Source of the DNA: a virus
Length of the DNA stretch: 64,000 nucleotides
Strand: one strand, 5' to 3'
Virus record (IMG/VR): IMGVR_UViG_3300047494_000112
Coordinates: 123,325 to 187,324 of that record
Positions within the stretch are counted from its first letter, which is position 1; every line of letters starts with the position of its first letter. Positions 39,781-61,555 of the stretch are shown piece after piece. Under the pieces are notes generated by a model. That model was not told the DNA's origin. It made no database searches and saw nothing but the letters and a program-made list of their open reading frames with translations. A program made the position numbers and the translations under genes.

Positions 39781-41274
39781 ATGCGTATTTTCCCGCCACA
39801 TGCTACTGACGTTTACAAAACCGGTCATATCTATCAGTACCCGCCAGGCACCACTCAGGTGTACAGCAACTTTACGCCCCGCTCTGATAAGCTGGCAAAG
39901 GTTGGTCTGGGCTTTGATCACAAGGTAGTTTTCTTTGGCCTCCAAGGCTTTTTGAAGGAACACTTGCATGATCTTTGGGGCGGCAATTTCTTTGCTCAGC
40001 CAAAAGAATACGTCCTAGAGCAATACAAGCGCCGAATGGATGGAGCTTTAGGAGAAGGCGCTGTAGGGGTTGAGCATTTTGCAGCTTTGCACGATCTAGG
40101 GTATATGCCTTTGCATATCAAGGCTTTGCCTGAAGGAGCGCGTGTCAATATCAAGGTACCGCTGCTTACAGTGACCAACACTCATCCAGATTTCTTTTGG
40201 CTGACAAACTACATTGAGACAGCAATGTCAGCTGAGCTGTGGAAACCAATTACTTCCGCAACAACAGCGTTTGAACTTAAGCGCATCCTTATGAGGTATG
40301 CATCTAAAACGGGTTCTGCAAAAGAATTTGTGCAATGGCAAGGTCATGATTTTTCATTCCGAGGCTTGAGCGGTATTCATGACGCAGCAGTTTCCGGTGC
40401 AGGACATTTGCTATCCTTTAACGGTACTGATACAATTGTTGCAATGGATTATTTGGATCAATATTATCGAGGAGCCGAAACTTTTATCGGTGGTTCAGTT
40501 CCAGCTACAGAACACAGCGTAATGTGTATGGGAGGCCAAGACGATGAGGTGGAGACATTCCGTCGTCTAATCCGCACTTACCCGTCAGGCATTCTTAGCG
40601 TCGTGTCTGACACCTGGGACTTTTGGAAAGTGATTACTGAAACGGCCACCACATTGAAAGATGAGATAATGGCTCGTCAACCAGATGCTTTGGGTAATGC
40701 AAAGCTGGTATTTCGTCCTGACTCTGGTGATCCTGTCAAAATTATCTGTGGTGATTCAGGAGCAGAAAGGGACACTCCTGCGTATTGGGGTGCCATTGCA
40801 ACTCTTTGGGACGTGTTTGGTGGTACGACGACAAGTACAGGTCACAAGCTATTAGATTCTCACGTTGGTCTGATCTACGGTGACAGCATTGACTTGCAGA
40901 AAGCTGAAACCATCCTGGGACGATTGGAACGGCAGGGTTATTCTTCTGGCAACGTTGTGTTCGGTGTAGGCTCGTTTACCTATCAATATGTGACGCGAGA
41001 CAGCTATGGAACAGCCATGAAGGCTACCTTTGGAGTGGTAAATGGTGAGGATAGAGAGTTGTTTAAAGATCCAATTACCGATAGTGGTGTCAAGAAATCG
41101 GCAAAAGGCTTATTGCGAGTTGAGCTGGAAGACGGAGAGTATGTACTGTATGACCAGCAAACTCGTGAACAAGAGAAGCAAGGAGAACTAAAGACTGTTT
41201 ATGCAAACGGTGAGATAATCAACAAGAATTCTCTCGCTAAAATTCGCGAACGCTTAAACAGCTTTTTTGAATGA
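39781..41274 (+). CDS. Nicotinamide phosphoribosyltransferase-like protein (candidate NARP1 Namat)
   Basis: TDVYKTGH; HDFSFRG; GTDT; VPATEHS; SVVSDTWD; RPDSGDP; IYGDSI; FGVGS; FKDPITD; KKSAKG. Confidence 0.93.
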   Translation: MRIFPPHATDVYKTGHIYQYPPGTTQVYSNFTPRSDKLAKVGLGFDHKVVFFGLQGFLKEHLHDLWGGNFFAQPKEYVLEQYKRRMDGALGEGAVGVEHFAALHDLGYMPLHIKALPEGARVNIKVPLLTVTNTHPDFFWLTNYIETAMSAELWKPITSATTAFELKRILMRYASKTGSAKEFVQWQGHDFSFRGLSGIHDAAVSGAGHLLSFNGTDTIVAMDYLDQYYRGAETFIGGSVPATEHSVMCMGGQDDEVETFRRLIRTYPSGILSVVSDTWDFWKVITETATTLKDEIMARQPDALGNAKLVFRPDSGDPVKIICGDSGAERDTPAYWGAIATLWDVFGGTTTSTGHKLLDSHVGLIYGDSIDLQKAETILGRLERQGYSSGNVVFGVGSFTYQYVTRDSYGTAMKATFGVVNGEDRELFKDPITDSGVKKSAKGLLRVELEDGEYVLYDQQTREQEKQGELKTVYANGEIINKNSLAKIRERLNSFFE

Positions 41275-41558
41275 TTAACCTTGGAGGGGAGCTTAGAGCT
41301 CCTCTCCATCTCTTGATGGAGAGTTTTATGAGGCAGCTTTCAGCCCTTGAAAAAGAACAAAAGCTAATTGATATTGGCTTTTCAATTGCAATGATAATAA
41401 CTGACAAAAGGTATAGCAAAAAATTTAGTAACATGACCCAAGAAAAAATTGCTGAATGGGTTGCTGAACAATATAAAGGCTGTGGATTTCCAACAGTACC
41501 TTGTGGCATGTCATGGGGTGTTTTGACAAGGGAGTATTGTGATGACCGAGTTTCATAA
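41271..41558 (+). CDS. Hypothetical protein
   Basis: ATGA coupling. Confidence 0.55.
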   Translation: MINLGGELRAPLHLLMESFMRQLSALEKEQKLIDIGFSIAMIITDKRYSKKFSNMTQEKIAEWVAEQYKGCGFPTVPCGMSWGVLTREYCDDRVS

Positions 41559-41817
41559 GATACCAGATACTGAGCATTATGCAATATTGACTACTCGCAG
41601 AGTCTATATTCCTGGTGATGAAAGGTCACAAACTAATCCTGGACACGGTTATCCTGCTTCCACAGAGACATTTATCAATTATGAATCATTCTCTGATCGA
41701 AAAGCTTGGGAAGCAAAGATTGATTTTCTTGCTAAGAGGCAAGATACATTTAAGGCACTACACGTTGTTCCTGCTGAAATTACGGTGACTACTCAGGTAA
41801 AGGTAAAGACACCATGA
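41539..41817 (+). CDS. Hypothetical protein
   Basis: ORF in operon context. Confidence 0.65.
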   Translation: MMTEFHKIPDTEHYAILTTRRVYIPGDERSQTNPGHGYPASTETFINYESFSDRKAWEAKIDFLAKRQDTFKALHVVPAEITVTTQVKVKTP

Positions 41818-41880
41818 TAGGAAATGTAATCGACCCAGGCTCAATTCTTGAGACGAGGAATAAGCAGCGTTTGGAAAGGA

Positions 41881-43059
41881 ATGCAAATGAGCAAAGTGCT
41901 TGACCTGAATACTACTGTCAAAAAGATTGGTTGCATTTACGAAGAGTTTCTGCTAGAGAATTGGGGTAAAGTTAAGCTGAGCGAAATGCAAGATTTGATA
42001 ATAAAAGAATTACGTGAAGCGAATGTAAGGCTAAGAGAGGATTTTGGATATAAGACCAGGTATTACCAGCCTAAAAAGATGAGAGGCCGACCTGCTCCTT
42101 CTAATGCTACAATTGAACGTGCTGCCCAAATGGCTGACATGAAGCTAAATGAACGCATGACCTTGGAAGAAATTGGTGCTCATTATGGCATGACACGCGA
42201 ACGTGTGCGTCAAATTCTAAACAAATTTTCCAAAGAGCAGTATCAGGCTTACCGAGCAGATGTTTCTGAAGCTGCTCAGCGTAAACGAGAGGCGTTAAAG
42301 GATGAAATTGAACAGCGTAAAATTGAGCGGCAAAAATATTGGGATCAATGTCACGACATTGCAAAGCAAGATTTTGCAAATGGCTTGACTTGGGATCAGG
42401 TTTTGGAAAAGAATGGTTGGACCAGAACCATCCAGCATCAACTACTCGACAAATATGTGGATCTAATTCGATTTCCCAGAGTAAGAATTGCAGCAAAAAT
42501 GACAGACGAAATTTGGAATGAAAGATACGAGATAGCCAAAAGAGTCCTGTCTGATGGAGGATCTTCGGAGGAAATTGCGTCAAAGCTGCACATATCAATT
42601 AGCTGCATTACTGCTATATATAAAAAGTTTCCTGATCTTAAACAGTTGGTTAAAGACCAAAGAGATAAAAAGAAGCAAAAAAGAAAGTGTCCTACTTTTA
42701 AGATCTATGATAAGGTTTGGGAACAGAGATACACTATTGCAAAAGAAATGCTAGACCAAGGAAAAAGTTGGGATGAGGTGAAAAAAGCTTTAAATTTGAA
42801 AGGCTATTCTAGTATCATTCTTCTTCAAAATCACTATCCTGATTTAAAGAAAAAGCCAGGCCATCGTAAAATAGGAAAAGGAAATCATGCCTTATCACCT
42901 GACGTTTGGCAGTTTAGGTATGATACAGCAAGGCAGATTTTATTCTACGACAAGGGTACGTGGAATGACGTTGCTCGTAAATTAGATTTGAAAATATCTT
43001 CAATGAATCGACTCAAAGTCAAGTTTCCTGATTTGAAAAACGCAAGGACAAATAGGTAG
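41881..43059 (+). CDS. Multi-HTH protein: sigma70 region-4-like HTH followed by four tandem HTH-like repeats
   Basis: MTLEEIGAHYGMTRERVRQIL; four copies of W..RY..AK..L..G.(S/T)W..(V/I)..(K)L.......(F/Y)PDLK. Confidence 0.8.
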   Translation: MQMSKVLDLNTTVKKIGCIYEEFLLENWGKVKLSEMQDLIIKELREANVRLREDFGYKTRYYQPKKMRGRPAPSNATIERAAQMADMKLNERMTLEEIGAHYGMTRERVRQILNKFSKEQYQAYRADVSEAAQRKREALKDEIEQRKIERQKYWDQCHDIAKQDFANGLTWDQVLEKNGWTRTIQHQLLDKYVDLIRFPRVRIAAKMTDEIWNERYEIAKRVLSDGGSSEEIASKLHISISCITAIYKKFPDLKQLVKDQRDKKKQKRKCPTFKIYDKVWEQRYTIAKEMLDQGKSWDEVKKALNLKGYSSIILLQNHYPDLKKKPGHRKIGKGNHALSPDVWQFRYDTARQILFYDKGTWNDVARKLDLKISSMNRLKVKFPDLKNARTNR

Positions 43060-44332: not shown

Positions 44333-44611
44333 TTGAATTGTCAATTTCCGTTTGGTGATCCGCGAGACAGAGAACATTTTCACTTTTGCGGAAAGCCCAC
44401 TTGTGAAAACAACAGTAATGTTCCCTATTGTGAAGAATGCTACAACCTTGCTTATGATAGCAATCGAACCAAACACTATAACAATAGGGCAAATATTAAT
44501 CCTCAACCAAAGGTTTTGGCAGTAAAGCCTGTCAAAGAAGCTCCGCAAAAAAAGATCAAAACTCCCGCCATCGCACCTAAGCGAATGGGCATAACTATAG
44601 AGGTAGATTAG
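44333..44611 (+). CDS. Stand-alone GcrA C-terminal-like domain
   Basis: CQFPFGDP...HFHFCG.P...PYCEEC...AY matches the GcrA CTD Cys motif; AAGGAG RBS with TTG start; no N-terminal HTH. Confidence 0.75.
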   Translation: MNCQFPFGDPRDREHFHFCGKPTCENNSNVPYCEECYNLAYDSNRTKHYNNRANINPQPKVLAVKPVKEAPQKKIKTPAIAPKRMGITIEVD

Positions 44612-44612
44612 A

Positions 44613-45458
44613 ATGTTTGGACATAACCGTATAATGGTTCCAAAATCTTATTCCGAGGAACCAAAAGAATCTCTAATGATAACTAGTCTATTTAAGACCA
44701 TGCAAGGAGAAGGCCCATTTGCAGGTCGTTCATGCGTTTTTTTGCGCCTTACTGGTTGTAATCTAAAATGCAGCTTCTGCGACACTTTCTTTGACTCTGG
44801 AGACACACTCTCTTTTCAAGAGATTATTGTTCGAATCCACGAAGCAGAATTAAGATTTTATCGTAGTAGAAATATTGACATACGAAGCACTGCACTTGAA
44901 ACGCAAAAAAGACTCCTGGTAATTACAGGAGGCGAACCAACAGCTCAACCAAACCTTACCGGGTTTATTGACCAGATTATTGGTCTTGGTTGGGATGTTC
45001 AGATTGAGAGTAACGGGTTGATTAAACGTCACCTTCATCCCGATGCTTATTATGTTGTAAGCCCAAAGGTAAATGAAAAAACCAAGCAATTCATCAAGCT
45101 TAATACAGATATGCTGATGAGAGCTAATTGCTTAAAGTTTGTAATCAGCAAGACAGAACCTGGCTATACAGACATTCCAGAATTTGCACTAGAATGGCGT
45201 AAAGAAGCTGATGAACGTGGAGTAGAAAAACGTATCTATGTTTCTCCTATGAACATGTATGCTACTCAGCCAGTAAAGCTAGGAGCTAATGGAACCTTGG
45301 AAGGTAGAAGTGAGGTTGATGAACGAATCTCATTCTGGACTCCAGGATTACTTGATATGAAAAAGAACCAGGAGAACCACGAATGGGCAGCTGAAATTGC
45401 TCTTAAGCATAGAGCGTACCTGACACTACAAACTCATCTGATGGCATCACTACCATAA
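44613..45458 (+). CDS. queE: 7-carboxy-7-deazaguanine synthase (radical SAM)
   Basis: F.TMQGEGPFAG..CVFLRLTGCNLKCSFCDT; VITGGEP; IESNG; VSPK; LQTH. Confidence 0.92.
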   Translation: MFGHNRIMVPKSYSEEPKESLMITSLFKTMQGEGPFAGRSCVFLRLTGCNLKCSFCDTFFDSGDTLSFQEIIVRIHEAELRFYRSRNIDIRSTALETQKRLLVITGGEPTAQPNLTGFIDQIIGLGWDVQIESNGLIKRHLHPDAYYVVSPKVNEKTKQFIKLNTDMLMRANCLKFVISKTEPGYTDIPEFALEWRKEADERGVEKRIYVSPMNMYATQPVKLGANGTLEGRSEVDERISFWTPGLLDMKKNQENHEWAAEIALKHRAYLTLQTHLMASLP

Positions 45459-45471
45459 CAAGGAGAATAAA

Positions 45472-46419
45472 ATGTCTGCAACACAAACTGAGACTAAAGT
45501 GTCAAACGTCGCAATGAAGCGTTTGATTGCTAATACTATTAGCCGAGCTCTCGAAAAGATGGGCAGCAAAATCTTTACTTTTACTGACGTAAATAACGCC
45601 ATTGTTTCTGACGGAAAATATAATGGTGGAGCAACAAATGATGAAATTCAGCACGCGCTTGATTGGCGTGTAAAAGCTTACAAATTATACAAGTTGCCTG
45701 ATGGTTCGTACACAAGGTCAAAAGGCCGTGCAAGGTTGGCTAAGACCAAAAATGAAGATAAGGTAGTGAAAACTATCTTTACACCTGCTGCCAAATTGGC
45801 AAAAAATGAAGTGCTGGCCAAAAACGCAAAGCCTGGAGATGGCCGTCCTGGTGGTCGTAAGATTATCCAAAGCCCTAAAAAGGTCAAGAGAAACAAGAAA
45901 CTTGTTCAAAGTAGCATAGGCCCAACGAAGCTTGGATTTGCAATAGGTAAAGCTATTAAAGCTTCAAACAACTTTTTGTCAGCCGACATTTTGCGAGCCG
46001 TTCAAATTGACTGGCCAAAAGCCACAATTCAGGACGTTAACAAAGCTCTAAATTGGCGTATTGCAAACAAGAGCTTAAAATTCGTTGATGGGTTTCTGGT
46101 TCATAGCGTCTGGAATGGCTCCAAGAGCCATGTACGCTCTGCCAAAAACGTTATCGTGCAAAAGAGCAATTTACCTGTAGAAACAAAGACTATAACAGAC
46201 GAAACTTTAACAGCACAGATAAAACGCTTAAACGATATTCCCCACACTATTGCTGACACCTCAATCAAGATAACCAAGACTTTTGATTTTACCGCTGATG
46301 CTCTTGGTATTGCTCAATTTGAAAGCTATTGCAAAATTTATGAAATGCTGAATGACAAGCACCAAGACATTTTGTATGGTAAAGTAATGGACTACATTAA
46401 TAGCATAATGGGAAGCTAA
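45472..46419 (+). CDS. Protein with two winged-helix-like repeats and a basic linker
   Basis: ATNDEIQHALDWRVKAYKL vs ATIQDVNKALNWRIANKSL. Confidence 0.7.
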   Translation: MSATQTETKVSNVAMKRLIANTISRALEKMGSKIFTFTDVNNAIVSDGKYNGGATNDEIQHALDWRVKAYKLYKLPDGSYTRSKGRARLAKTKNEDKVVKTIFTPAAKLAKNEVLAKNAKPGDGRPGGRKIIQSPKKVKRNKKLVQSSIGPTKLGFAIGKAIKASNNFLSADILRAVQIDWPKATIQDVNKALNWRIANKSLKFVDGFLVHSVWNGSKSHVRSAKNVIVQKSNLPVETKTITDETLTAQIKRLNDIPHTIADTSIKITKTFDFTADALGIAQFESYCKIYEMLNDKHQDILYGKVMDYINSIMGS

Positions 46420-49662: not shown

Positions 49663-49945
49663 TAAATTTTTAGGGGTTATTATTCTAATATTTTTTATAT
49701 TTGTAATTACCTCACTATTGGCTTTTAACCAGTTAAAAATAAATCCGGTTGCAAACTTTAATCCAACTTTAATACAAGATCAACAAATGGCGCGTGACTG
49801 TATCTTGTCAGAGGTAAAATGGGCTGATAGCCAAACCAAGCCCTCCAATCAAGAAATTAATGCTTGGAGCGACAATTGTCTTGGTATTGCCACCGCTGAA
49901 TATAGGGTACTATTACAGGAGAAAATAGATGAAAACCGCAATTGA
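49655..49945 (+). CDS. Membrane-anchored hypothetical protein
   Basis: N-terminal TM helix; ATG at 49655. Confidence 0.65.
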   Translation: MFNKFLGVIILIFFIFVITSLLAFNQLKINPVANFNPTLIQDQQMARDCILSEVKWADSQTKPSNQEINAWSDNCLGIATAEYRVLLQEKIDENRN

Positions 49946-50339
49946 AAAATTGGCTGAACGTGATGAAGATAAAGGGCTAATAAAGCGCCATGTTTCATGG
50001 GGGCCTGAAGGCCACAAAATGACCCAAGAAGAAAAAGCTGAGTATATTCTTCAGATTGAAGATCAAGTAGCTGCAGAACTGGCAAACACTGTATCTATTC
50101 CAGTGTCAGTGTTGACTGACATTTCAGACGCTTTACATAATCTACATAAACTAGGTCAAGCTACCATTGATGAATGGACGCATATGAGTGAAAGTGAACG
50201 TTTTCTTCGTCATAAAGTAGGCGAACTTGCCGAGTTTCCAGCAATGTTTGCAGAGCAATATCTACCGGCAAATATTCAGATTGAGCGGCGTAAGGATCGT
50301 TTAAGACGAGAACGGGCACCAGCAACAGAGCGAGAATAA
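49929..50339 (+). CDS. Hypothetical protein
   Basis: AGGAG RBS. Confidence 0.7.
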   Translation: MKTAIEKLAERDEDKGLIKRHVSWGPEGHKMTQEEKAEYILQIEDQVAAELANTVSIPVSVLTDISDALHNLHKLGQATIDEWTHMSESERFLRHKVGELAEFPAMFAEQYLPANIQIERRKDRLRRERAPATERE

Positions 50340-50363
50340 TGACACAATTTAGGAGGATATCTA

Positions 50364-50600
50364 ATGAATGAATACTGGCGCAAACCTAACTGGTCAGCAA
50401 ATGCTACAGGCGAACAGCTTCGCAATGCTCTAAAAGAAGCTATAGACTATATTGATAGGTGTGAAAAAACTTTGGCAGAGGCAGCAATCCCACTTGAAAC
50501 AATGAACATTGTAGGTCAAAAAACAATGGGAATAAGCGATGACTTGTGGCAAGGAATACATCGAGCCATCATGTCTATCCGACAAATTTTTACGCCATGA
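50364..50600 (+). CDS. Hypothetical protein
   Basis: AGGAGG RBS. Confidence 0.65.
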   Translation: MNEYWRKPNWSANATGEQLRNALKEAIDYIDRCEKTLAEAAIPLETMNIVGQKTMGISDDLWQGIHRAIMSIRQIFTP

Positions 50601-50797
50601 ATATATTTAATGAATTGGTAGATCAAAACCAAATGGCTGCAGGATTAAAAGAAATTATGACTCATAGTACAATAATTGCTCTCAGCAACTCACCTGCCAT
50701 TTATACTGAGTTGATCAACAAAGGATACGCCTACAAATGGAGTAATAGGTGGCATGTTACGCCAAAAGGCTCAGACTTTATAAGTCATCAATTATAA
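50597..50797 (+). CDS. Small winged-helix-like protein
   Basis: ELINKGYA...W.VTPKG; ATGA coupling. Confidence 0.5.
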   Translation: MNIFNELVDQNQMAAGLKEIMTHSTIIALSNSPAIYTELINKGYAYKWSNRWHVTPKGSDFISHQL

Positions 50798-50851
50798 ACA
50801 AAAACTTTCAGCTATCTGATAGATCATGTGGAAATAATACGGAGATTAAAA

Positions 50852-51445
50852 ATGGCTCGCACTTATTGGCTTTACGGAGATTTGCATTTTCAACATGAGA
50901 ATATGTCGTCATTTTTATTAGATGACGGTTCAATAGCTAGACCCAATCCTTTTACAAAAGAAAAATTTTCTGGTTCAGAAGAACATGATGAATTTCTAAT
51001 TGAGCAATGGAACTCAGTTGTAAAATCGGAAGGTCACACAGTTTATCTTCTGGGCGATATCTGTATTAACCAAAAAGGTCTATTCAAGCTTAATAGATTA
51101 AATGGCCGCAAAATTTTGGTGCCAGGTAACCACGATATCTTTCCAATGAAAGATTATATGCCGTATTTTTCAGATGTACGCGGATACATTGTACGCAATA
51201 AAATTATCTACACGCACATCCCAATTCATAAAGACTGCATGGCAAGATTTGGCTGTAACGTGCATGCTCATACACATAATAATGTAATGAAAGACATTCA
51301 CGGTCTACCTGATAGAAGGTATTTTTGTGTTTCTGTCGAACAGTGCCCTGGGTACAAGCCAATTTCAATGGATATAATTCATGCTCATCGTGACAAGTTA
51401 AAAGCTGATGGCTTAATTGACGAAAAAGCAAAGGGAAATGCCTAA
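50852..51445 (+). CDS. Calcineurin-like metallophosphoesterase
   Basis: GDLHFQH; YLLGD; PGNHD; THIPIH; NVHAHTH. Confidence 0.88.
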   Translation: MARTYWLYGDLHFQHENMSSFLLDDGSIARPNPFTKEKFSGSEEHDEFLIEQWNSVVKSEGHTVYLLGDICINQKGLFKLNRLNGRKILVPGNHDIFPMKDYMPYFSDVRGYIVRNKIIYTHIPIHKDCMARFGCNVHAHTHNNVMKDIHGLPDRRYFCVSVEQCPGYKPISMDIIHAHRDKLKADGLIDEKAKGNA

Positions 51446-53150: not shown

Positions 53151-53732
53151 TCATTTTCGTTCAAGTTCTAACTCCTTTAAAATCAAAGGTGGTAGTAAGT
53201 CCCAGAGAGTATCTGCAAAATATACTCCTAGTTTTTGTCTAATTTCTGTTTTTGTCATAGTTTTAACAAAAAGCCAAATGTCCATTCTTCTAATACCTAG
53301 TCCAGGCAAAGAAAAGGGGCTTCTAGATTTTTGTTTATTAACCAATTTGGCTCGATGTGAGCATTTATCTTGGTTCAGACACGCTGAATAGTTTGCCTCC
53401 AATGGAGAGCCACAATTAGAACAAGAATACTGCCATTTGGATTTTTCTCTTAGTTCTTGCAATAACTGATACAGTTTTGTCATTTTTTCTAATTGGGAAA
53501 CAGAATTAGAGTAAGCAGCTTGAGCAGTTTTTTGGTCAACACCAAAAACAATTGCAAAATCTTGAATACTAGCTGTATATTTTTTGTAAAAACATCCAGT
53601 CTTTTTTCCTCCTGTTAGTCTAACAAGATTAGCTGGGCATTCATAAACTTGGCAATCTCCAATTACACGAATACTAGATATAGGACAAACGTGTATCTGT
53701 GTCTTATCCTTTCCTTTTAGTTTTACTTCCAC
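53151..53732 (-). CDS. Cys-rich hypothetical protein (zinc ribbons)
   Basis: CPIS...CQVYEC...CFYK; CSNCG...C....C. Confidence 0.7.
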   Translation of the reverse strand: MEVKLKGKDKTQIHVCPISSIRVIGDCQVYECPANLVRLTGGKKTGCFYKKYTASIQDFAIVFGVDQKTAQAAYSNSVSQLEKMTKLYQLLQELREKSKWQYSCSNCGSPLEANYSACLNQDKCSHRAKLVNKQKSRSPFSLPGLGIRRMDIWLFVKTMTKTEIRQKLGVYFADTLWDLLPPLILKELELERK

Positions 53733-54375
53733 GTTTATTTTCCTTTATCCATTTTTTTGCAAAAGCTTGAATTTGATTAGGCTTCCAAGATTCATATGGA
53801 TTTTTGTCCCACAAATTTGCTAAATAAACTGCTTGAAGATGAGCATCAATCATATGATCTGGAAAAGGCTTTAAGCTATCATAGAAACCTTCCAAAGGCC
53901 TTAAAATTTTCTCTGCTGGTACTAGTTTACCTTTCACACGTTTATTTACCATTATTGTCTTAGCGTATTGAGGATTTTGTTTAGTCCATCGGTTTTTCCA
54001 CTGTGATGCTGATATTAAATATATGTATATCTTATTCTGCAAACAGATAGAAGATATAATACCAATCATAATATTTAAATATTCGGAAGAATTTCCATTA
54101 AACCTCCCTCGATTCTGAAATCGCTCTAACAAGACAACATTTGGTTTATGCTTGTTTAGCAGTGTTTTAAATTCTAACTCGAAGGAAATTAGACAAGGCA
54201 AGAAAGCTGGATCAATTAATGTCTGAATAGTATTTGTTATAAATCCTAATTCAATTAATTTTTTACTTACGGTTAACCCGTACGCTAAATTCTTGCTACC
54301 CATGTCCAAACTTAAAATACGCTTGAATTTCTTTTTTGTTTTGATTAGCTTTGGCAGCTTAGGTTTCTTTGCCAT
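53704..54375 (-). CDS. RuvC-like Holliday junction resolvase
   Basis: ILSLDMGSKNLAYG; VLLERFQ; I.ASQWK; DHMIDA (RNase H fold D-E-D-D). Confidence 0.8.
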   Translation of the reverse strand: MAKKPKLPKLIKTKKKFKRILSLDMGSKNLAYGLTVSKKLIELGFITNTIQTLIDPAFLPCLISFELEFKTLLNKHKPNVVLLERFQNRGRFNGNSSEYLNIMIGIISSICLQNKIYIYLISASQWKNRWTKQNPQYAKTIMVNKRVKGKLVPAEKILRPLEGFYDSLKPFPDHMIDAHLQAVYLANLWDKNPYESWKPNQIQAFAKKWIKENKRGSKTKRKG

Positions 54376-54489: not shown

Positions 54490-55125
54490 ATGAATACTAA
54501 ACAACGTCAAGCTTTAGCTGAAATTGGTCATCCTAAGCATTTAGATAAGCTAGTTTCAGATAAAGATTCAGATGTAAGATATGCAGTAGCTATAAGTGGA
54601 AACGACTCTCATAGAGACAAGCTAATTTCAGATAAAGATTTAGATGTAAGACAAGCAGTAGCTGAGAATGGAAATGATTCCCATAAAGACAAGCTAATTT
54701 CAGATCACGATGAAGATGTAAGACAAGCAGTAGCTGAGAATGGAAACGATTCTCACAGAGATGAGCTAATATCAGATCCAAATAAATATGTAAGATATGC
54801 AGTAGCTAGGTACGGAAACGATTCTCATAGAGACAAGCTAGTTTCAGATAAAGATGAGAATGTAAGATGTGCAGTAGCTTGGAAGGGAAATGATTCCCAT
54901 AGGGACAAATTAATGTCAGATCCAAGTGAGTTTGTAAGACGGGCGATAGCTAAGCATGGAAATGACTCCCATAGAGACAAGCTAGTTTCAGATCCAGAGG
55001 AATATGTAAGATATGCAGTAGCTCAGCATGGAAATGTTAGTCATGCAAGATCTTTACTAAAAGATAAAGATAAAGAAGTTAGATTTGCTGCAAAACAAAG
55101 ACTAAAAGAGTTAGGAGAAAAATAA
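54490..55125 (+). CDS. HEAT/LRV-like repeat protein 1 (N-cap, 7 x 24-aa repeats, C-cap)
   Basis: DSHRDKLVSD-xxxx-VR-x-AVA-xx-GN repeats, 72 nt each. Confidence 0.9.
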   Translation: MNTKQRQALAEIGHPKHLDKLVSDKDSDVRYAVAISGNDSHRDKLISDKDLDVRQAVAENGNDSHKDKLISDHDEDVRQAVAENGNDSHRDELISDPNKYVRYAVARYGNDSHRDKLVSDKDENVRCAVAWKGNDSHRDKLMSDPSEFVRRAIAKHGNDSHRDKLVSDPEEYVRYAVAQHGNVSHARSLLKDKDKEVRFAAKQRLKELGEK

Positions 55126-55127
55126 AA

Positions 55128-55766
55128 ATGACACCTAACCAACGCCAAGCTCTAGCTTCAATTAGCCATCCTAAGCATTTAGACAAGCTAGTTTCAGATA
55201 AAGATTCAGATGTAAGACAAGCAGTAGCTGAGCATGGAAACGATTCCCATAAGGATAAGCTAATTAAAGATAAAGATTCAGATGTAAGACATGCAGTAGC
55301 TCAGCATGGAAATGACTCTCACAGAGATAAGCTAGTATCAGATCCAAGTGAGTATGTAAGACATGCAGTAGCTCAGCATGGAAATGACTCTCACAGAGAC
55401 AAGCTAGTTTCAGATCCAAATTCAGGTGTAAGATATGCAGTAGCTGAGAATGGAAATGACTCTCATAGAGACAAGCTAGTTTCAGATCCAAGTGAGTATG
55501 TAAGATATGTAGTAGCTAAGCATGGAAACGATTCTCACAGAGATAAGCTAGTAAAAGATAAAGATCTAGATGTAAGATATGCAGTAGCTGAGCATGGAAA
55601 TGATTCTCATAGAGACAAGCTAATTTCAGATCCAGATTGGCATGTAAGACGTGCAGTAGCTGAGAATGGAAATGTTAATCATGCAAAAGCTTTACTAGAC
55701 GATAAAGATAAAAAAGTTAGACTTGCTGCAAGACATAGACTAAAAGCATTAGGAGTTAAATCTTGA
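55128..55766 (+). CDS. HEAT/LRV-like repeat protein 2 (7 repeats)
   Basis: Same scaffold and caps as 54490..55125. Confidence 0.9.
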   Translation: MTPNQRQALASISHPKHLDKLVSDKDSDVRQAVAEHGNDSHKDKLIKDKDSDVRHAVAQHGNDSHRDKLVSDPSEYVRHAVAQHGNDSHRDKLVSDPNSGVRYAVAENGNDSHRDKLVSDPSEYVRYVVAKHGNDSHRDKLVKDKDLDVRYAVAEHGNDSHRDKLISDPDWHVRRAVAENGNVNHAKALLDDKDKKVRLAARHRLKALGVKS

Positions 55767-57370
55767 GTTTTACATTTAACGGTAACAGCGCAGATTACTC
55801 GAATACGGCAGGTTACGAAGCAATAGCTCCAGAAAACACAGGGATTGGCTGGATTGCACAAACACGATTAAATGGCTTAGTAGCTCGTGCTAATCAAAAA
55901 TTAATTAATGCTATGAAAGTTGATGGCGTGCCTTTGACTGTATGGGTAAAGACTCAGACAGGTTATCCATGTACGTGCTGTGCATCAGATAAAGTCACGT
56001 CGGGCCTTTTATCCTCTTCAGTTGAAAATGCTCAATCTACAAATCATTTTTATACTGATCTCGACGCCTCAGCTTTGCCTGATCCAACCGAACAAAAATT
56101 TAAAGCTGTTAGATTAAAAAGTGTAGATTTAGTCAACGATATCTCAGATCCAATTTGGGCCAGCTTAGCTAATCCAACAAGTAACAAGATAATTACTCCT
56201 GAAATAAATGAAACCAACCAATTAAATCAAGGAGTACAGGTTAATCTAAATCAAAACGAAGATTTAGATATTTTTGTACCTAATGCAAATCAAGTTGAAG
56301 GTCAATCTGAATACGGTGATTTTGAATTAGATGATTTCTTTGCAGGTGGAGATTCTGGAGCCGTATTTGGCGGTGATAAAACTGCTTGTGGAATTTGTTT
56401 TACCTCAGGTTTTACTCAAGGCTATTCACTATTAAATGGTCAGCGCATTGTTTTAGATGCTTCAGGTTCAGTGCCTTTTTCTTTACAAGGGGCTGATTTA
56501 ATTTCCAGCACCTATCCTAACTCTTTTAATCTACCAGTGAATAACACCGGCGTGTTTTGGCAATTAGAGCTACCTGTATTCTGCAAAGAATGGATAAACG
56601 TTAGAGCTAGGAATAATTTAAAACCAGCTCAATGGGTAATAATTGAATATAGCCTTGATGCTGTAAATTGGAATTTATTAACGTTAGATATTTTGAACGG
56701 AACTAGTAATTCTTATACACGCTTATGGTACATTCGCGCTAGAAGAGACCCTGCAGCAACACAGGTTTCACAGGTAACTTTTACACACTTGGAATTGATG
56801 GTCATTACCTCTGATCCAATTCCTTCACAAACACCAAATTTTTCCTACAACACAGATTTTAATCAGTATGATGCCATTGTAAATACAACTTTTGACGTTG
56901 CACCCACTGTAAATATGATTCCCCGAGAATCCGTTTTTAGCGATAACAAATATGGACTATTTTGGAAAGTAATAGATATTACGCCTCAAATGACCTCAGG
57001 CCAACAAATCTTTGGATTTACAGTTAATGCTAGGCTAGTACAAAGACACGAACAGCTCTATAACCTACACTCTCTATACGTTGAGGTTCCAACTTATATG
57101 TCTGTATTGGGGGCATCTGGTACAAATCTTAGTGGCTATAATTCTACTCTACCTAACCAGTTAAACGAAATCGCTGCAACTACAGCACCGTTTACTGGAT
57201 TAGAACAGGTTCAAGGTGGGTACTCTATCGTTAATTCAGAGGAACAACAAGGTGGACAACAAGTAGATAATATAGGATTAGATGACACCCAACCAATTGA
57301 ATATGATATTCAGGATACAGCTACAGTAGAATCTGGTTATCATCCTCCTGACAATCAAGGTACGTCATGA
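55763..57370 (+). CDS. Probable virion structural protein (neck/head-closure-like; CTCC and CGIC.TSGFT.GY motifs)
   Basis: 535 aa; N/Q/T/S-rich; Cys motifs; coupled to LRV genes on both sides; located in the structural module. Confidence 0.55.
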   Translation: MSFTFNGNSADYSNTAGYEAIAPENTGIGWIAQTRLNGLVARANQKLINAMKVDGVPLTVWVKTQTGYPCTCCASDKVTSGLLSSSVENAQSTNHFYTDLDASALPDPTEQKFKAVRLKSVDLVNDISDPIWASLANPTSNKIITPEINETNQLNQGVQVNLNQNEDLDIFVPNANQVEGQSEYGDFELDDFFAGGDSGAVFGGDKTACGICFTSGFTQGYSLLNGQRIVLDASGSVPFSLQGADLISSTYPNSFNLPVNNTGVFWQLELPVFCKEWINVRARNNLKPAQWVIIEYSLDAVNWNLLTLDILNGTSNSYTRLWYIRARRDPAATQVSQVTFTHLELMVITSDPIPSQTPNFSYNTDFNQYDAIVNTTFDVAPTVNMIPRESVFSDNKYGLFWKVIDITPQMTSGQQIFGFTVNARLVQRHEQLYNLHSLYVEVPTYMSVLGASGTNLSGYNSTLPNQLNEIAATTAPFTGLEQVQGGYSIVNSEEQQGGQQVDNIGLDDTQPIEYDIQDTATVESGYHPPDNQGTS

Positions 57371-57858
57371 CACCTAACCAACGCAAAGCTTTAGCTTCAA
57401 TTAGCCATCCTAAGCATTTAGATAAGCTAATTAAAGATTCACATGTAGGTGTAAGATATGCAGTAGCTGAGAATGGAAACGATTACCATAGAGACAAGCT
57501 AGTTTCAGATCCAAATTGGTATGTAAGACAAGCAGTAGCTGAGAATGGAAACGATTACCATAGAGACAAGCTAGTTTCAGATCCAAATTGGTATGTAAGA
57601 CAAGCAGTAGCTTGGAATGGAAATGACTCTCACAGAGACAAGCTAGTTAAAGATACAGATTGGATTGTAAGACAAGCAGTAGCTGAGCATGGAAATGATT
57701 CTTATAGAGACAAGCTTGTCTCAGATCCAGATTGGCATGTAAGACAAGCAGTAGCTAGGAATGGAAATGCTAACCATGCTAAAGCTTTGCTAAAAGATAA
57801 AGATAAAAATGTTAGAGATATTGCAAAAAATAGACTAAAAGATTTAGGAGCACAGTAA
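57367..57858 (+). CDS. HEAT/LRV-like repeat protein 3 (5 repeats)
   Basis: Same scaffold; exact 72-nt tandem duplication at 57469-57540 and 57541-57612. Confidence 0.9.
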   Translation: MTPNQRKALASISHPKHLDKLIKDSHVGVRYAVAENGNDYHRDKLVSDPNWYVRQAVAENGNDYHRDKLVSDPNWYVRQAVAWNGNDSHRDKLVKDTDWIVRQAVAEHGNDSYRDKLVSDPDWHVRQAVARNGNANHAKALLKDKDKNVRDIAKNRLKDLGAQ

Positions 57859-58181
57859 TGATTAGAATAAATTTACCTCCAGCTGCAAAAATAAACAGAC
57901 AACAACGTTATGCAGCAATTAAAAATGTTGACCCAAAACCTTCGTTTATGCAAAAGCCTCTTCCGCCTACTTCTAGTACGGAAATTCGCACTCGATTACC
58001 TACAATGGAAACTGCATCAACCTGCAGACGCAACCCTAGAATTTCAACGGTGCGATAATGGATGTGTGGTAATAAAGACCACGCTAAAGCTCTATTAAAA
58101 GACACTGACCCGGATGTTCGTAAACGTGCTAAATATAAACTTGATCAGTTAAATTCAAAAAAATCTAATTCAAATTCATAA
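57858..58181 (+). pseudogene. Degenerate LRV-family paralog (in-frame TAA at 58056, then an intact C-cap)
   Basis: ...ISTVR*WMCGNKDHAKALLKDTDPDVRKRAKYKLDQL matches the C-cap of the paralogs. Confidence 0.55.
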
Positions 58182-58233
58182 TTACTTTTTGAGAGTCTAA
58201 AAAGACCTCATTCACTACACTTAGGAGAAAGTC

Positions 58234-58871
58234 ATGTTTGGTCTACGCCGTAGAAAAACCAATATGACCAGAGACAAGAAAACGGGTAGGATGCGAAGAA
58301 AAGACCCAAAACGTTCTAGAGCTGCCAAAAAAGCAGCTCGAAAGCGTATTGGTAAGCATTTATCAGCAGCTACTCGTCGAAAAATTGCACGTTCAGAACA
58401 ACGTGCAAGAAAAACCGGAAGAACCAAAGCAGGCCGTAGAGTAATCAAGGCTGCCGTAGTGCCGGTAATTGGACCCAACGCTAAACGTAAAAGGATATCA
58501 CTTGTGACTAAAGCTAAAAAAGCGGCTGCGAAAACAGCCTTGAAGCCGGCGAAACTAATTGCAGTTACAGCTAGTACAAAAAAGAAAGTAAAAGCTGTCA
58601 AGGCTGTAAAGCCTGCCAAAGGCACAAAAGCTGCTCCGAAGAAAGAAACCAAAGCTAAAGCTGTAAAGGTTGTTAAGGCCAAGAAGGCGGGACTGCAAAG
58701 GTCAAAGCCACAAAAGTTAAGGCTGCAACAAAGACTTCGCCTAAGACTGCACGTACAAAGGTAACAGCTTCCGCCAAAAAGACGACCCCTAAAGGAAAGA
58801 CCAAAAATTTGGTCAAGGCCAAAGGTACACGTATCAAGAAAGCAACGCCTTCCGTTATTACAGTTAAATAA
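58234..58871 (+). CDS. Arg/Lys/Ala-rich histone/protamine-like protein, apparently frameshifted near 58690
   Basis: Annotated frame ends at 58764. The -1 frame from 58692 continues TAKVKATKVKAATKTSPKTARTK...VITVK to TAA at 58871, just before a terminator. Confidence 0.75.
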
Positions 58872-58885
58872 ACTAATAGAGTATT

Positions 58886-58913
58886 GGTGAGAGTGTAAAA
58901 ACTCTCACCTTTT
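58886..58913 (+). terminator. Rho-independent terminator
   Basis: ggtgagagt-gtaaaa-actctcacc then tttt. Confidence 0.8.
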
Positions 58914-58928
58914 CTAGGAGGCAAGTCA

Positions 58929-60086
58929 TTGCCGTCGACTGCAAATATTCGTAAGTATCAAAACCTTCGTGCTGTATCTTTACATTTAGTTGAGATTAAT
59001 AAACAGCACCAAGCTCTCGCGAAAACCATTGATAAGATTGTCAAAGCCAACGATAAAGTTATTACCGTTGGTCCTTCTGCACGACAAAAAATTACTGTAA
59101 AACAAGCACTACCTCAGCCGATAGTTGATAAAATTGCAAACAATAGCAAGGTAATTGACAAGCTTAGCCAGCAATATGCTGCGCTATCAAACATGATTCT
59201 TAATCTAAATACTCAATTCAAGACTTCAAATGTTGATCCCAAATTGGTTGATCTATTAACGTCTAAAATTGCTGAATTACAAAATCAAATTCGGTCACAA
59301 AGAGATATAGCCAATAAAGCAGCTACCCACTATGGTCAGTCTTACGCATCTAATGTTGGGATTAGCTATGCCAAAAAAATCATGAATTTTTTAAACAAAA
59401 AATTCAGCACCAAAGGTACAATGATTACTACCTCAGGTATGATTGACGGTCAGCCTTGTATTACTCATTTTGTAAAATACGAAAACATTAAGAATGATAA
59501 AGATGAAATTGAACCGATGGTTACGGTAGCAATTTCGGAGTATCAAGGTCATCATTGGATTAATCCTAATTCAGTTCAGCCTCGCTCTGTAGGAAAATTT
59601 AGATTAGGTTTTCAATTAGATGATGATGAAAAGAAAGCTCTCATTCAGATTCAACGCTACGTTCAAGAACAAATGGCTGCTGATTCTTTATCATCAACTC
59701 ATTCTTTGAAGCTAATACCGATTACCAAAAAGCAGGCAGGACTACAAAAATATAATAATGCTGTCTTTACTGACAAGTCGATAGTTGTTACTTTTCCTAA
59801 AAAAGAGATTAAGACAGAAGCTCAAGCCAAAGAAAGAGCGGAAGCAATTTATCGCAACATCCATCATGCTTATGTTGCTTCACATCCAGGAAAGAGATCT
59901 TTTGATCGGATTGTTTATCCTATTAAACAAGTGGGTGATAACTGGGTTGTAACGTACATGTTTGTCACTGGTGATAAATTTACAGGACGAACAATGACCA
60001 ATGATGAACATCAAAAATTAAATAACATTTTTGATCCTCATGAAGTAGCTGTTTTGAAAAAAGCTCTTAACAGCATGTTTGATTAA
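58929..60086 (+). CDS. Hypothetical protein (possibly structural), N-terminal coiled coil
   Basis: 385 aa; AGGAGG RBS with TTG start. Confidence 0.75.
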   Translation: MPSTANIRKYQNLRAVSLHLVEINKQHQALAKTIDKIVKANDKVITVGPSARQKITVKQALPQPIVDKIANNSKVIDKLSQQYAALSNMILNLNTQFKTSNVDPKLVDLLTSKIAELQNQIRSQRDIANKAATHYGQSYASNVGISYAKKIMNFLNKKFSTKGTMITTSGMIDGQPCITHFVKYENIKNDKDEIEPMVTVAISEYQGHHWINPNSVQPRSVGKFRLGFQLDDDEKKALIQIQRYVQEQMAADSLSSTHSLKLIPITKKQAGLQKYNNAVFTDKSIVVTFPKKEIKTEAQAKERAEAIYRNIHHAYVASHPGKRSFDRIVYPIKQVGDNWVVTYMFVTGDKFTGRTMTNDEHQKLNNIFDPHEVAVLKKALNSMFD

Positions 60087-60090
60087 CAGA

Positions 60091-60583
60091 ATGAACACAC
60101 TTGAACAACGCATAGCTTTAGCTAAAATTGGTCATCCTAAACATTTAGACAAGCTAGTCTCAGATCCAAGTAAGCATGTAAGACATGCAGTAGCTGAGAA
60201 TGGAAATGATTCTCATAGAGACAAGCTAGTTTCAGATCCAGATTGGAGTGTAAGATATGCAGTAGCTATAGAGGGGAATGACTCTCATAGAGACAAGCTA
60301 GTTTCAGATAAAGATTGGCATGTAAGACATGCAGTAGCTGAGAATGGAAATGATTCTCATAGAGACAAGCTAGTAAAAGATCCAAATGGATATGTAAGAT
60401 ATGCAGTAGCTAGGTATGGAAACGACTCATAGAGACAAGCTAATTTCGGATCCAAGTGAGTTTGTAAGACGTGCAGTAGCTTGGAAAGGAAATGCTAACC
60501 ATGCTAAAGCTTTGCTAAATGATAAAGATAAAAATGTTAGAGATGCTGCAAAAGGTAGACTAAAAAAGTTAGGAGTACGGTAA
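60091..60583 (+). pseudogene. HEAT/LRV-like repeat protein 4 (5 repeats) with a 2-nt deletion near 60427
   Basis: aacgactcataga instead of aacgactctcataga; the shifted frame carries repeat 5 and the C-cap to TAA at 60583. Confidence 0.8.
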
Positions 60584-61051
60584 ATGAAAGAATTAAACGG
60601 CGTACCTATATTTGATACTAGCATGCCCAGTCAAGGCAAGAAAATAGGTGGGTCACCTCCTAATACTAGCTTTTTTCCTAGTGGTCTGGCTGATACTTCT
60701 TCAATGCGAAATGCTTCAAAATCTTACACCGAAGAAAAACGTATGCACTTTATTCGTCGCATGTTGAAAAATGTATCTATACCCGAACATAAGGAAAAAG
60801 ATATTCAGATTCAAATGTACAACGGACAACCTATGATGAGTAATCCTCCTTATGGTTTTTTACCTTTTATGTTAATGTCAGAAAGAGGTGAAGTTAGTAA
60901 GGAAGCTTTAATTAAAGCCATAAACTGGTGCGGAGATCGTAAAAAAGAATACGAAAAATCTGGTGATTATTTTCGCATGTGGCTTTTTGCTCAACGTCAA
61001 AGCATGTTGTCCGGAATACTGACTCACCTTGTTAAATTCTCTCTAGCCTAA
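60584..61051 (+). CDS. Hypothetical protein
   Basis: TAAATG coupling; 155 aa. Confidence 0.7.
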   Translation: MKELNGVPIFDTSMPSQGKKIGGSPPNTSFFPSGLADTSSMRNASKSYTEEKRMHFIRRMLKNVSIPEHKEKDIQIQMYNGQPMMSNPPYGFLPFMLMSERGEVSKEALIKAINWCGDRKKEYEKSGDYFRMWLFAQRQSMLSGILTHLVKFSLA

Positions 61052-61108: not shown

Positions 61109-61555
61109 ATGCCTAAATCAGGTGCTCTCGAAACTGGCGTCCTTAACCTTGTTCTTAACGCCACAGGTATTGCAAATATTGCAGATAATACCGCAACTTC
61201 TCCTTTGACCAATCTATACTTTGCTCTTCATACAGCTTCTCCTGGCGCTTCTGGCAATCAAAGTGCTAACGAAATATCTTACACTGGTTATTCTAGAGTA
61301 GCTGTTCTTCGTAACACAGGTTCACCTGCTTGGACCTTGACAGGTACTAATCCTGTTTCCGCTTCACCAAACTCTAACGTTACTTTTGGCACTAGCACTG
61401 GCGGTACTGGTGGTACAATTACCTATTTTTCACTTGGCTCTTTAGCAAGTGGTGCTGGCGTAATTTATTACTATGGTACTGTTACTCCTAATATCACAGT
61501 TACTACCGGTGTTGCTCCTCAGCTAACAACGGCTTCAACCATCACGGAAACCTAA
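61109..61555 (+). CDS. Phage tail/tail-fibre-associated structural protein
   Basis: LYFALHTASPG...EISYTGYSRVAV...VTF...GTITYF pattern typical of phage tail-fibre-associated proteins. Confidence 0.75.
   Translation: MPKSGALETGVLNLVLNATGIANIADNTATSPLTNLYFALHTASPGASGNQSANEISYTGYSRVAVLRNTGSPAWTLTGTNPVSASPNSNVTFGTSTGGTGGTITYFSLGSLASGAGVIYYYGTVTPNITVTTGVAPQLTTASTITET

Follow-up and report, generated by a model that had tools for sequence, protein, structure and literature searches.

Capped LRV-type solenoid genes with a diversifying surface, inserted at operon junctions of a T4-like phage: a family of putative binding proteins

The last 64 kb of the 187,324-bp IMG/VR record IMGVR_UViG_3300047494_000112, a phage genome rated 81% complete by CheckV, is the stretch of DNA analysed here (the window). 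It contains four plus-strand genes, W1 to W4, built of 72-nt units that each encode 24 amino acids (aa); they were apparent in the open reading frame (ORF) listing and with Tandem Repeats Finder, in which the four arrays score 405-889. The register was set by slicing each protein from the conserved HPKH of its N-terminal cap (N-cap), and it continues without gaps through 7, 7, 5 and 5 units, respectively, to a C-terminal cap (C-cap) that is itself a modified repeat unit. A first-pass annotation of this DNA had described four genes with these repeat numbers and a consensus for each cap, and this description holds. W1 (54490..55125; 211 aa) is the first gene of a plus-strand operon, past a divergent RuvC-like gene, and is followed by W2 (55128..55766; 212 aa); both have an N-cap, seven units and a C-cap. 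W3 (57367..57858; 163 aa) has five units between its caps and carries a tandem duplication, with 81 nt identical at a lag of 72 (57460..57612), so that the exact 72-nt duplication reported for this gene is real. The fourth gene was also correctly credited with five units, but it is broken. Its 5' part (60091..60432) encodes the N-cap and four units and ends in a premature TAG at 60430-60432, while the last unit and the C-cap are encoded in the +1 frame by its 3' part (60433..60583). At 60424-60432, W4 has 'gac tca tag' instead of the 'gat tct cat ag' of other units: a loss of 2 nt in a TCTC run creates the stop and shifts the remainder of the gene. The 3' part is also covered by a 55-aa ORF that starts at an internal ATG (60416).

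The family had been put at four to five genes. A search of the whole record combined with motif extraction revealed 13 further capped genes on the minus strand, in the range of 8 to 52 kb, as well as diverged members at 44451, 44755-45768 and 50598-50942 of the record. The record holds at least 17 capped genes and two to three diverged ones (about 19 genes), with 88 non-cap units, and the family sums to about 8.4 kb, i.e. about 4.5% of the record. Each protein consists of an N-cap, four to seven units of 24 aa and a C-cap, and the lengths of the genes step by 24 aa (139, 163, 187 and 211-212 aa). Together with the tandem duplication in W3, this range indicates that units are occasionally gained and lost. 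All capped copies but W4 are intact (16 of 17).

Pfam HEAT (PF02985) matches these proteins with E-values of 1e-20 to 1e-22 (1.8e-22 for W1) and with 70-78 bits for W1-W3, well past the cut-off of 23.5 although the 24-aa unit is shorter than classical HEAT repeats. The LRV family (PF01816, cut-off 21.6 bits) matches W2 (34.9 bits), W3 (25.4 bits) and the 5' part of W4 (23.6 bits), and W1 scores just under the cut-off (19.7 bits). In PHROGs, the match is to phrog_20647 (1.4e-58 for W1), a group without assigned function. An AlphaFold2 model of W2, based on an alignment of 15 paralogues, has a predicted local distance difference test score (pLDDT) of 97.2 and a predicted template modelling (TM) score of 0.89. 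It alternates a 10-residue helix A (unit positions 11-20) with a 7-residue helix B (positions 23-5), and the N-cap is modelled as a structural capping helix. Among 350,542 Protein Data Bank chains the best match is 1LRV, with a TM score of 0.78 and a root mean square deviation of 2.5 Å over 191 columns at 27% identity, and the designed alphaRep binders match the model at a TM score of about 0.7. The predicted fold is that of an LRV-type alpha-solenoid, and the cap-repeat-cap LRV/HEAT design that had been proposed is borne out by the Pfam matches, the model and the 1LRV match. 1LRV, from the LRV protein of Azotobacter vinelandii (PF01816), likewise repeats every 24 residues and has a VRxAVA-type helix. 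This cellular protein occurs singly and has an Fe-S domain at its N-terminus, unlike the roughly 19 short, capped, stand-alone phage paralogues, which display a hypervariable stripe.

With the unit numbered H1-R-D-K-L5 ... V13-R14 ... G21-N-D-S24, amino-acid entropy reaches 2.0-3.1 bits at positions 10, 11, 12, 15, 19 and 20, is about 1-1.5 bits at positions 6, 7, 9 and 16, and is near zero at the remaining positions. The variation therefore lies where it had been reported, around the Val-Arg (VR) pair and before Gly-Asn. Glu, Asn, His, Asp, Tyr, Trp and Arg are abundant among the variable residues. Judging from helix periodicity, positions 11, 15, 19 and 12 of the modelled helix A would occupy an arc of about 100 degrees on the side opposite to the conserved, core-facing V13 and V17. 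Sites 11, 12, 15 and 19, to which position 16 is added in a second phage described below, fit an i, i+1, i+4, i+5, i+8 pattern around VR. The caps vary at homologous positions (15 and 19 in the N-cap; 11, 12, 15, 16 and 19 in the C-cap), which indicates that the variable stripe extends from cap to cap. A comparison with alphaRep proteins is instructive. Their variable positions are 18, 19, 22, 23 and 26, and binding occurs through the face that carries them (PMC3754942). These positions correspond one to one with unit positions 11, 12, 15, 16 and 19 of the phage proteins, in keeping with the likeness to alphaRep that had been put forward, and the small side chains at alphaRep position 23 recall the Ala, Thr or Val found here at position 16. 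Mapping the variable positions on a predicted structure had been suggested as a check, and periodicity applied to the model does place them on one side of the VR helix, as in alphaRep. Both families have a cap-repeat-cap design in which the repeat number varies. However, alphaRep proteins have a 31-aa repeat, are man-made and have demonstrated binding activity, whereas the phage unit has 24 aa, its diversity is natural and its binding is what we infer.

A similar expansion was found in a second phage, IMGVR_UViG_3300050132_000084 (150,145 bp, with terminal repeats, rated 100% complete), which has 17 arrays and 99 units. Its unit has almost the same protein scaffold, including GNDSHRDKL, and the same variable positions plus position 16, with different caps. 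The consensus 72-mers of the two phages differ at 29 of 72 bases, mostly synonymously; thus, VR is encoded by GTT CGT in the second phage and by GTA AGA here. Both phages have T4-type baseplates, and their gp6-like proteins match phrog_219, but a direct protein search in the second phage detected no homologue of the gp6-like or the 535-aa protein of the first (the latter being encoded between W2 and W3). The only matching record in the phage collection is that of a cultured phage, Vibrio phage vB_VmeM-32 (Straboviridae, 199,912 bp), with five to six copies, one of which is annotated as 'HEAT repeat protein'. The paper that describes this phage does not discuss the repeat genes; its genome was assembled from PacBio data (PMC6483233). 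These occurrences bear on the trivial explanation that the arrays are collapsed, expanded or chimeric joins of repeats. The source is indeed a metagenome assembly of repetitive DNA, and the 2-nt frameshift in the TCTC run of W4 could be a sequencing error. Nevertheless, the caps are intact and the 24-aa register is perfect in all arrays, copies share only short exact matches, and the same family is found in an independently assembled second phage and in a cultured phage assembled from long reads, which makes an artefact extremely unlikely.

The unit DNA had been called nearly invariant, synonymous sites included. This is true of the scaffold codons among the 88 non-cap units (Leu5 CTA in 81/88, GTA in 79/82, AGA in 84/86, Gly21 GGA in 87/88), and the choice of Ala codon is even position-specific, with GCA at Ala16 (70/73) versus GCT at Ala18 (84/87). 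It does not hold for position 3, where GAC (49) and GAT (37) coexist. Codon bias was considered as the cause of this fixity and rejected, as the scaffold codons are minority codons in the rest of the genome: CTA represents 19% of Leu codons and GGA 26% of Gly codons, and CCA, AAG and GAG have shares of 30%, 32% and 30%. Shared descent or homogenisation thus explains the fixity better. A constraint at the nucleotide level on the frozen synonymous sites was also rejected, as the second phage encodes the same scaffold with other synonymous codons. The sequences suggest that the units became homogeneous inside each genome either through a recent burst or through concerted evolution. Across the units of the record, the linker codons (22-24, 1 and 3) show high polymorphism at synonymous C/T sites, which assort freely. 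Synonymous sites of codons 5-21 are almost frozen, and the second phage is polymorphic at a different synonymous set.

Nei-Gojobori counts were made pairwise over units. In the window's phage, the proportions of nonsynonymous (pN) and synonymous (pS) differences are 0.026 and 0.233 for the scaffold, and pN is 0.45 for the variable codons. The ratio of the nonsynonymous rate at variable codons to the synonymous rate of the scaffold, dN(variable)/dS(scaffold), is 2.5 (bootstrap 1.95-3.35). The second phage has scaffold pN and pS values of 0.018 and 0.163, a variable-codon pN of 0.40 and a ratio of 3.1 (bootstrap 2.2-4.5). The scaffold is under strong purifying selection, with a pN/pS of about 0.1. 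Although the estimate is crude, the direction of the signal is clear and is replicated in the second phage. Such a signature is compatible with the binding surface that had been proposed, here a diversifying one.

The first-pass annotation had also viewed the arrays as sets of swappable units. The recurrences on which this was based, PSEF/R, RY/WK and PDWH, do exist across genes, but whole-unit exchange overstates the data: among 88 units, a single 72-mer is common to different genes (1/88) and 85 variable signatures are unique. It is patches within units that re-assort. Patches 10-12, 15 and 19-20 are statistically independent of one another, with residues linked inside a patch. The nearest neighbours of the repeat genes differ between their 5' and 3' ends, and five synonymous C/T sites of the linker form 16 haplotypes among 48 junctions. 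The longest exact tracts between non-adjacent or distant copies are 116 and 82 nt, and about a dozen reach 50 nt. Recombination between copies is thus real and acts below the level of the unit.

At the variable codons themselves, the first two bases are near saturation and the third is almost fixed, with nucleotide diversities of 0.73, 0.42 and 0.05 at codon 12. Such a pattern could be written by a targeted mutator, for instance a diversity-generating retroelement. However, no match to the reverse transcriptase family PF00078 was found in the 187-kb, 81%-complete record, while control genomes did match. In addition, at codons 15 and 19 (NNA) of the second phage, bases 1 and 2 vary and the third-position A is fixed (diversity 0.02-0.04), so the mutations are not adenine-specific. 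These two observations make a diversity-generating retroelement very unlikely. We also know of no retroelement target that resembles about 90 units in 17 genes.

The copies have a characteristic genetic context. Every copy in the record is co-oriented with the flanking late genes and usually overlaps them by a few bases. Copies lie between gp7-like, gp6-like, gp25-like and gp5-like baseplate genes, and others around the portal gene, between the portal and large terminase genes, and directly after a gene for an Alt-like ADP-ribosyltransferase. The repeat genes had been described as embedded in the virion module, and their location in late structural operons, with baseplate- and fibre-type neighbours, agrees with this. 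Most copies start with ATGA, which also provides the stop of the upstream gene. In all four window copies the C-cap includes an AGGAG motif in its Leu-Gly-x codons, 7-10 nt ahead of the next start codon: at 55113..55117 in W1 (Leu-Gly-Glu codons), 10 nt before the ATG of W2; at 55751..55755 in W2, 7 nt before the TTG start of the 535-aa gene (55763..57370, plus strand); at 57846..57850 in W3, 7 nt before the next ATG (57858); and at 60571..60575 in W4, 8 nt before the ATG of a 155-aa gene (60584-61051, plus strand). The 535-aa gene overlaps the stop of W2 (TTGA) and the start of W3 (ATGA), as expected from the translational coupling that had been predicted. As the ends of the cassette carry a stop and an AGGAG, its insertion leaves translation of the operon intact.

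Four relatives (L019, L020, L023 and L024), found by protein search and an alignment-based metagenome scan, have orthologues of the 535-aa protein at 59-72% identity, with the same flanking genes. A nucleotide search of the phage collection had given no match, and single-protein searches of viral contigs with the 535-aa protein and the portal had returned no relatives. None of the four has a repeat gene at the W1/W2, W3 or W4 junctions. In L019, L020 and L023 the 535-aa orthologue and the RuvC-like gene face each other directly, nothing repeat-like is present 3' of that orthologue in any of the four, and the W4 site is empty in L020 (4-nt gap) and L024, where the orthologue of the 385-aa gene upstream of W4 (58929..60086, plus strand) abuts that of the 155-aa gene. 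W1/W2, W3 and W4 are therefore insertions in this lineage. The copies were moreover made from one another, as indicated by shared flanks, ends and junctions. The same 11-nt flank, caaggtacgtc, precedes the ATG of W3 (window 57356-57366) and the record gene 50182-50601 (record 50602-50612), and the C-cap end of W3 is that of the record gene 49760-50179, so that from its sequence W3 looks like a chimera of the tandem pair 49760-50179/50182-50601. The W1-W2 junction recurs at two other tandem pairs of the record. A single mini repeat gene, with one unit and a cap-like sequence, is present in L019 (586-771), the most closely related contig, several kb upstream of the 535-aa orthologue. From its sequence, this gene might be either the founder of the family or a relic of it.

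Lineage-specific insertions at gene junctions, absent from relatives, with cassette ends that have their own stop and AGGAG signals, might be interpreted as mainly selfish DNA that spreads through harmless ends and brings little benefit to the phage. The broken copy and the share of the record taken up by the family would fit. Yet the purifying selection on the scaffold and the large majority of intact copies argue against this view, as do substitutions concentrated at the same structural positions in two unrelated phages, which is not what neutral decay would yield. To the extent that the flanking genes were scanned, neither a transposase nor a homing nuclease is associated with the copies. 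We therefore regard purely selfish cassettes as quite improbable.

The location of the copies raises the question of a role in the virion. The proteins might serve as adaptors or decorations of the baseplate, fibres or head, as assembly chaperones or as injected head cargo, in which case the variable surface would face host structures or the phage's own proteins. In favour of this, all copies in this genome are inside late structural operons and translationally coupled, the second phage has copies on both sides of its gp6-like gene and beside other baseplate wedge genes, and the window neighbours include a protein of the Gp80 fibre family and one with a domain resembling carbohydrate-binding modules (CBM). 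However, the four relatives keep the structural neighbours with no repeat gene between them, indicating that these structural proteins assemble without such a partner and arguing against an obligate pairing with neighbour proteins. In vB_VmeM-32, the copies are outside structural operons, with small early-type genes and genes of nucleotide metabolism around them and predicted terminators at their bounds. The solenoid is the sole domain of these proteins, with no virion-anchoring domain. Finally, the N-cap is conserved, but only 5 of 15 copies have Glu at the candidate site for the T4-type cleavage motif (L/I-x-E). The virion-adaptor role that had been tied to the window neighbours is weakened by the relatives and by the early-type setting in vB_VmeM-32, and we consider a virion-associated function unlikely.

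Alternatively, these proteins might be modular readers of a polymer (RNA, DNA or polysaccharide) with one unit per monomer, like TALE, PUF or PPR proteins. Near-identical units, four to seven in number, with few variable residues at fixed positions are what one would expect of such readers, and the proteins are mildly basic, mostly with isoelectric points of 8.6-9.7. The vocabulary of each patch is also limited, most so in the second phage, with 82% of positions 19-20 taken by four pairs. Nevertheless, the variable positions are 25% acidic (Asp or Glu), with only about 9.5% Arg or Lys. A limited vocabulary would also be expected from few founder variants combined with recombination. The sole match to a TALE, PUF or PPR family is that of W2 to PUF, which is below threshold (19.3 versus 26.3 bits), and to our knowledge no LRV protein reads nucleic acid. 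Polymer reading thus appears improbable.

We propose instead that these genes are a lineage-specific multigene family of small, soluble LRV-type alpha-solenoids in which the helix A stripe (positions 10-12, 15 and 19-20, with 16 in the second phage) would stack into one continuous variable surface. The family would have grown by the copying of whole cassettes into junctions of late structural operons, the ATGA start ending the upstream gene and the Leu-Gly-x codons giving the downstream gene its AGGAG. Diversity would arise mainly by amino-acid substitution at the variable codons, to which the re-assortment of three patches, the occasional duplication or loss of units and gene conversion would add. 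Each paralogue would bind its own target through the variable surface, most likely a host protein, such as one involved in defence or targeted for take-over, and the family would act as a repertoire in the host-phage arms race. We give a probability of roughly 55% to this reading, i.e. a diversifying family of LRV-solenoid binders with a different target for each paralogue. What the analysis shows is the fold, the place of the variation, the signature of selection, the expansion in two phages and the insertion in this lineage; binding, the nature of the targets and the time at which the proteins act are the conjectural elements of the proposal. The interpretation of the first-pass annotation, taken as a whole, is thereby partly supported.

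Several observations weigh against our proposal. Counter-defence genes are usually early, yet all copies in this genome are in late structural operons. The solvent exposure of the variable residues is deduced from helix periodicity and homology rather than from coordinates. The selection estimate is crude, given that Nei-Gojobori pairs are non-independent and that gene conversion operates between copies. The behaviour of synonymous sites is uneven along the unit, and the limited vocabulary of each variable patch could reflect recognition of a polymer with a small alphabet. A bolder and less likely version of the proposal, which we put forward tentatively, is that large T4-like phages keep a self-expanding repertoire of programmable LRV-solenoid binders, with cassettes suited to entering late operons while leaving translation undisturbed. 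Synthesis of these binders would accompany that of the virion, they might be packaged and enter the host along with the DNA, and each would neutralise a different immune sensor or effector of the host.

As for the distribution of the family beyond the three phages, metagenomic homologues at 40-55% identity are found on contigs of 168-250 kb. Very long LRV arrays and one fusion of a NACHT domain with an LRV array (P0056) are among the homologues; PF22270 (MlrA_helical) also matches the long homologues, but these matches overlap with the repeats and we consider them spurious. In the ESM Atlas, clusters of small HEAT/LRV proteins belong mostly to Uroviricota, and in a viral structure library the matches are uncharacterised phage LRV proteins, with giant-virus ankyrin proteins as weak neighbours. 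An exact look-up of the repeat proteins in the cluster collection retrieved none. With the two phages, the cultured Vibrio phage and ESM Atlas clusters mostly from tailed phages, the class appears to be widespread. A phage-like 37-kb contig labelled as a Rhodospirillales metagenome-assembled genome (GCA_028866335.1) has at least five LRV repeat genes. One of these genes has N- and C-caps like those of the family, and its unit linker GH-x-KHLDKL resembles the N-cap junction; the neighbour of the repeat gene is unrelated to genes of the window's phage.

Multigene families of solenoid binders in viruses and natural HEAT-like repeats with hypervariable positions are already known in kind. Ankyrin families of poxviruses and giant viruses, and the ankyrin proteins of sponge-associated phages, are lineage-specific solenoid expansions thought to bind host proteins. 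They differ from the phage family in their fold, in their less regular per-position variability and in having no translationally coupled cassettes in structural operons. T4-type phages have an internal-protein locus with hyperplastic small accessory genes that share their N-terminus and are thought to counter host defences, and short repeated regulatory sequences allow such accessory genes to move from one genome to another. That locus and the family are unrelated in sequence, the cleavage motif appears not to be conserved here, and the repeated element is the coding cassette itself. On the host side, the LRV array of the NACHT-LRV fusion is homologous to the phage family and joined to a NACHT NTPase, and the HEAT domain of DSR2 is described as binding a phage tail tube protein and a phage inhibitor (PMC11263360). 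These arrays are host-encoded and fused to effector or NTPase domains, unlike the phage proteins, which have no other domain. In the literature searched, we found no account of phages with expanded LRV or HEAT families. Two features are unusual here: the translation-neutral design of the cassette, and the fact that the expansion took place in parallel in T4-like phages that are unrelated.

If these proteins are binders, one phage devotes about 4.5% of its genome to some 19 affinity proteins, and its repertoire evolves in the way designed libraries are built, with a fixed scaffold, one variable helix face and a variable number of modules. Should the repertoire neutralise host immunity, it would represent a class of phage counter-defence proteins that is both widespread and uncharacterised, and its 24-aa unit would be a natural scaffold for binders. 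This could open the way to new proteins of phage-host interaction and to a compact natural scaffold for binder engineering, and could provide an example of coding cassettes that spread in operons with their own translational coupling signals. The cultured carrier vB_VmeM-32 (DSM 29703) makes the function directly testable.

Among the neighbours of the repeat genes, the 535-aa protein belongs to phrog_21298, without assigned function, and has no match in Pfam or in the ESM Atlas. Its model is poor overall (pLDDT 46), with residues 210-430 alone usable. In this part, residues 217-350 form a beta-sandwich resembling CBMs, its sole confident domain, with a middling Z score of 7.4, and residues 372-435 resemble tail-tip or baseplate proteins, again with middling Z scores of 5-6. 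The first-pass annotation had named it a putative neck protein. This finds no support, and given the poor model and middling matches the name is neither confirmed nor replaced by a firm one; by its sequences, the window module looks more like baseplate and fibre genes than like neck genes. Conserved Cys pairs are present in this protein, with C70, C72, C209 and C212 invariant in 11 homologues. Its last 21 residues do not align with the orthologues, and the insertion of W3 possibly altered this C-terminal end.

Further along the operon is the gene of an extremely basic protein of 176 aa in which Lys, Arg and Ala abound (58234-58764, plus strand); it has no Pfam or PHROG match, and homologues are encoded in the same operon of L019, L020 and L024. 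Downstream of the 155-aa gene, a 148-aa protein (61109-61555, plus strand) matches Pfam Gp80 (podophage GP4 fibre I protein; 3.9e-13) and phrog_240. The three ORFs that follow, up to 63575 on the same strand, are rich in Ser, Thr, Gly and Ala and have a fibre-like look, with no family match. On the other side of the locus, the RuvC-like Holliday junction resolvase gene (53704-54375, minus strand; phrog_18317, 1.9e-15) diverges from the repeat/structural operon, an arrangement kept in L019, L020 and L023. Outside the window, at 41079-42797 of the record (minus strand), is the gene of the T4 Alt-like protein, which has 572 aa and an ADP-ribosyltransferase exoenzyme domain (Pfam, 2.3e-14); the repeat gene that directly follows overlaps it by 4 nt. 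In vB_VmeM-32, an ADP-ribosyltransferase gene is located about 1.2 kb from a member of the family.

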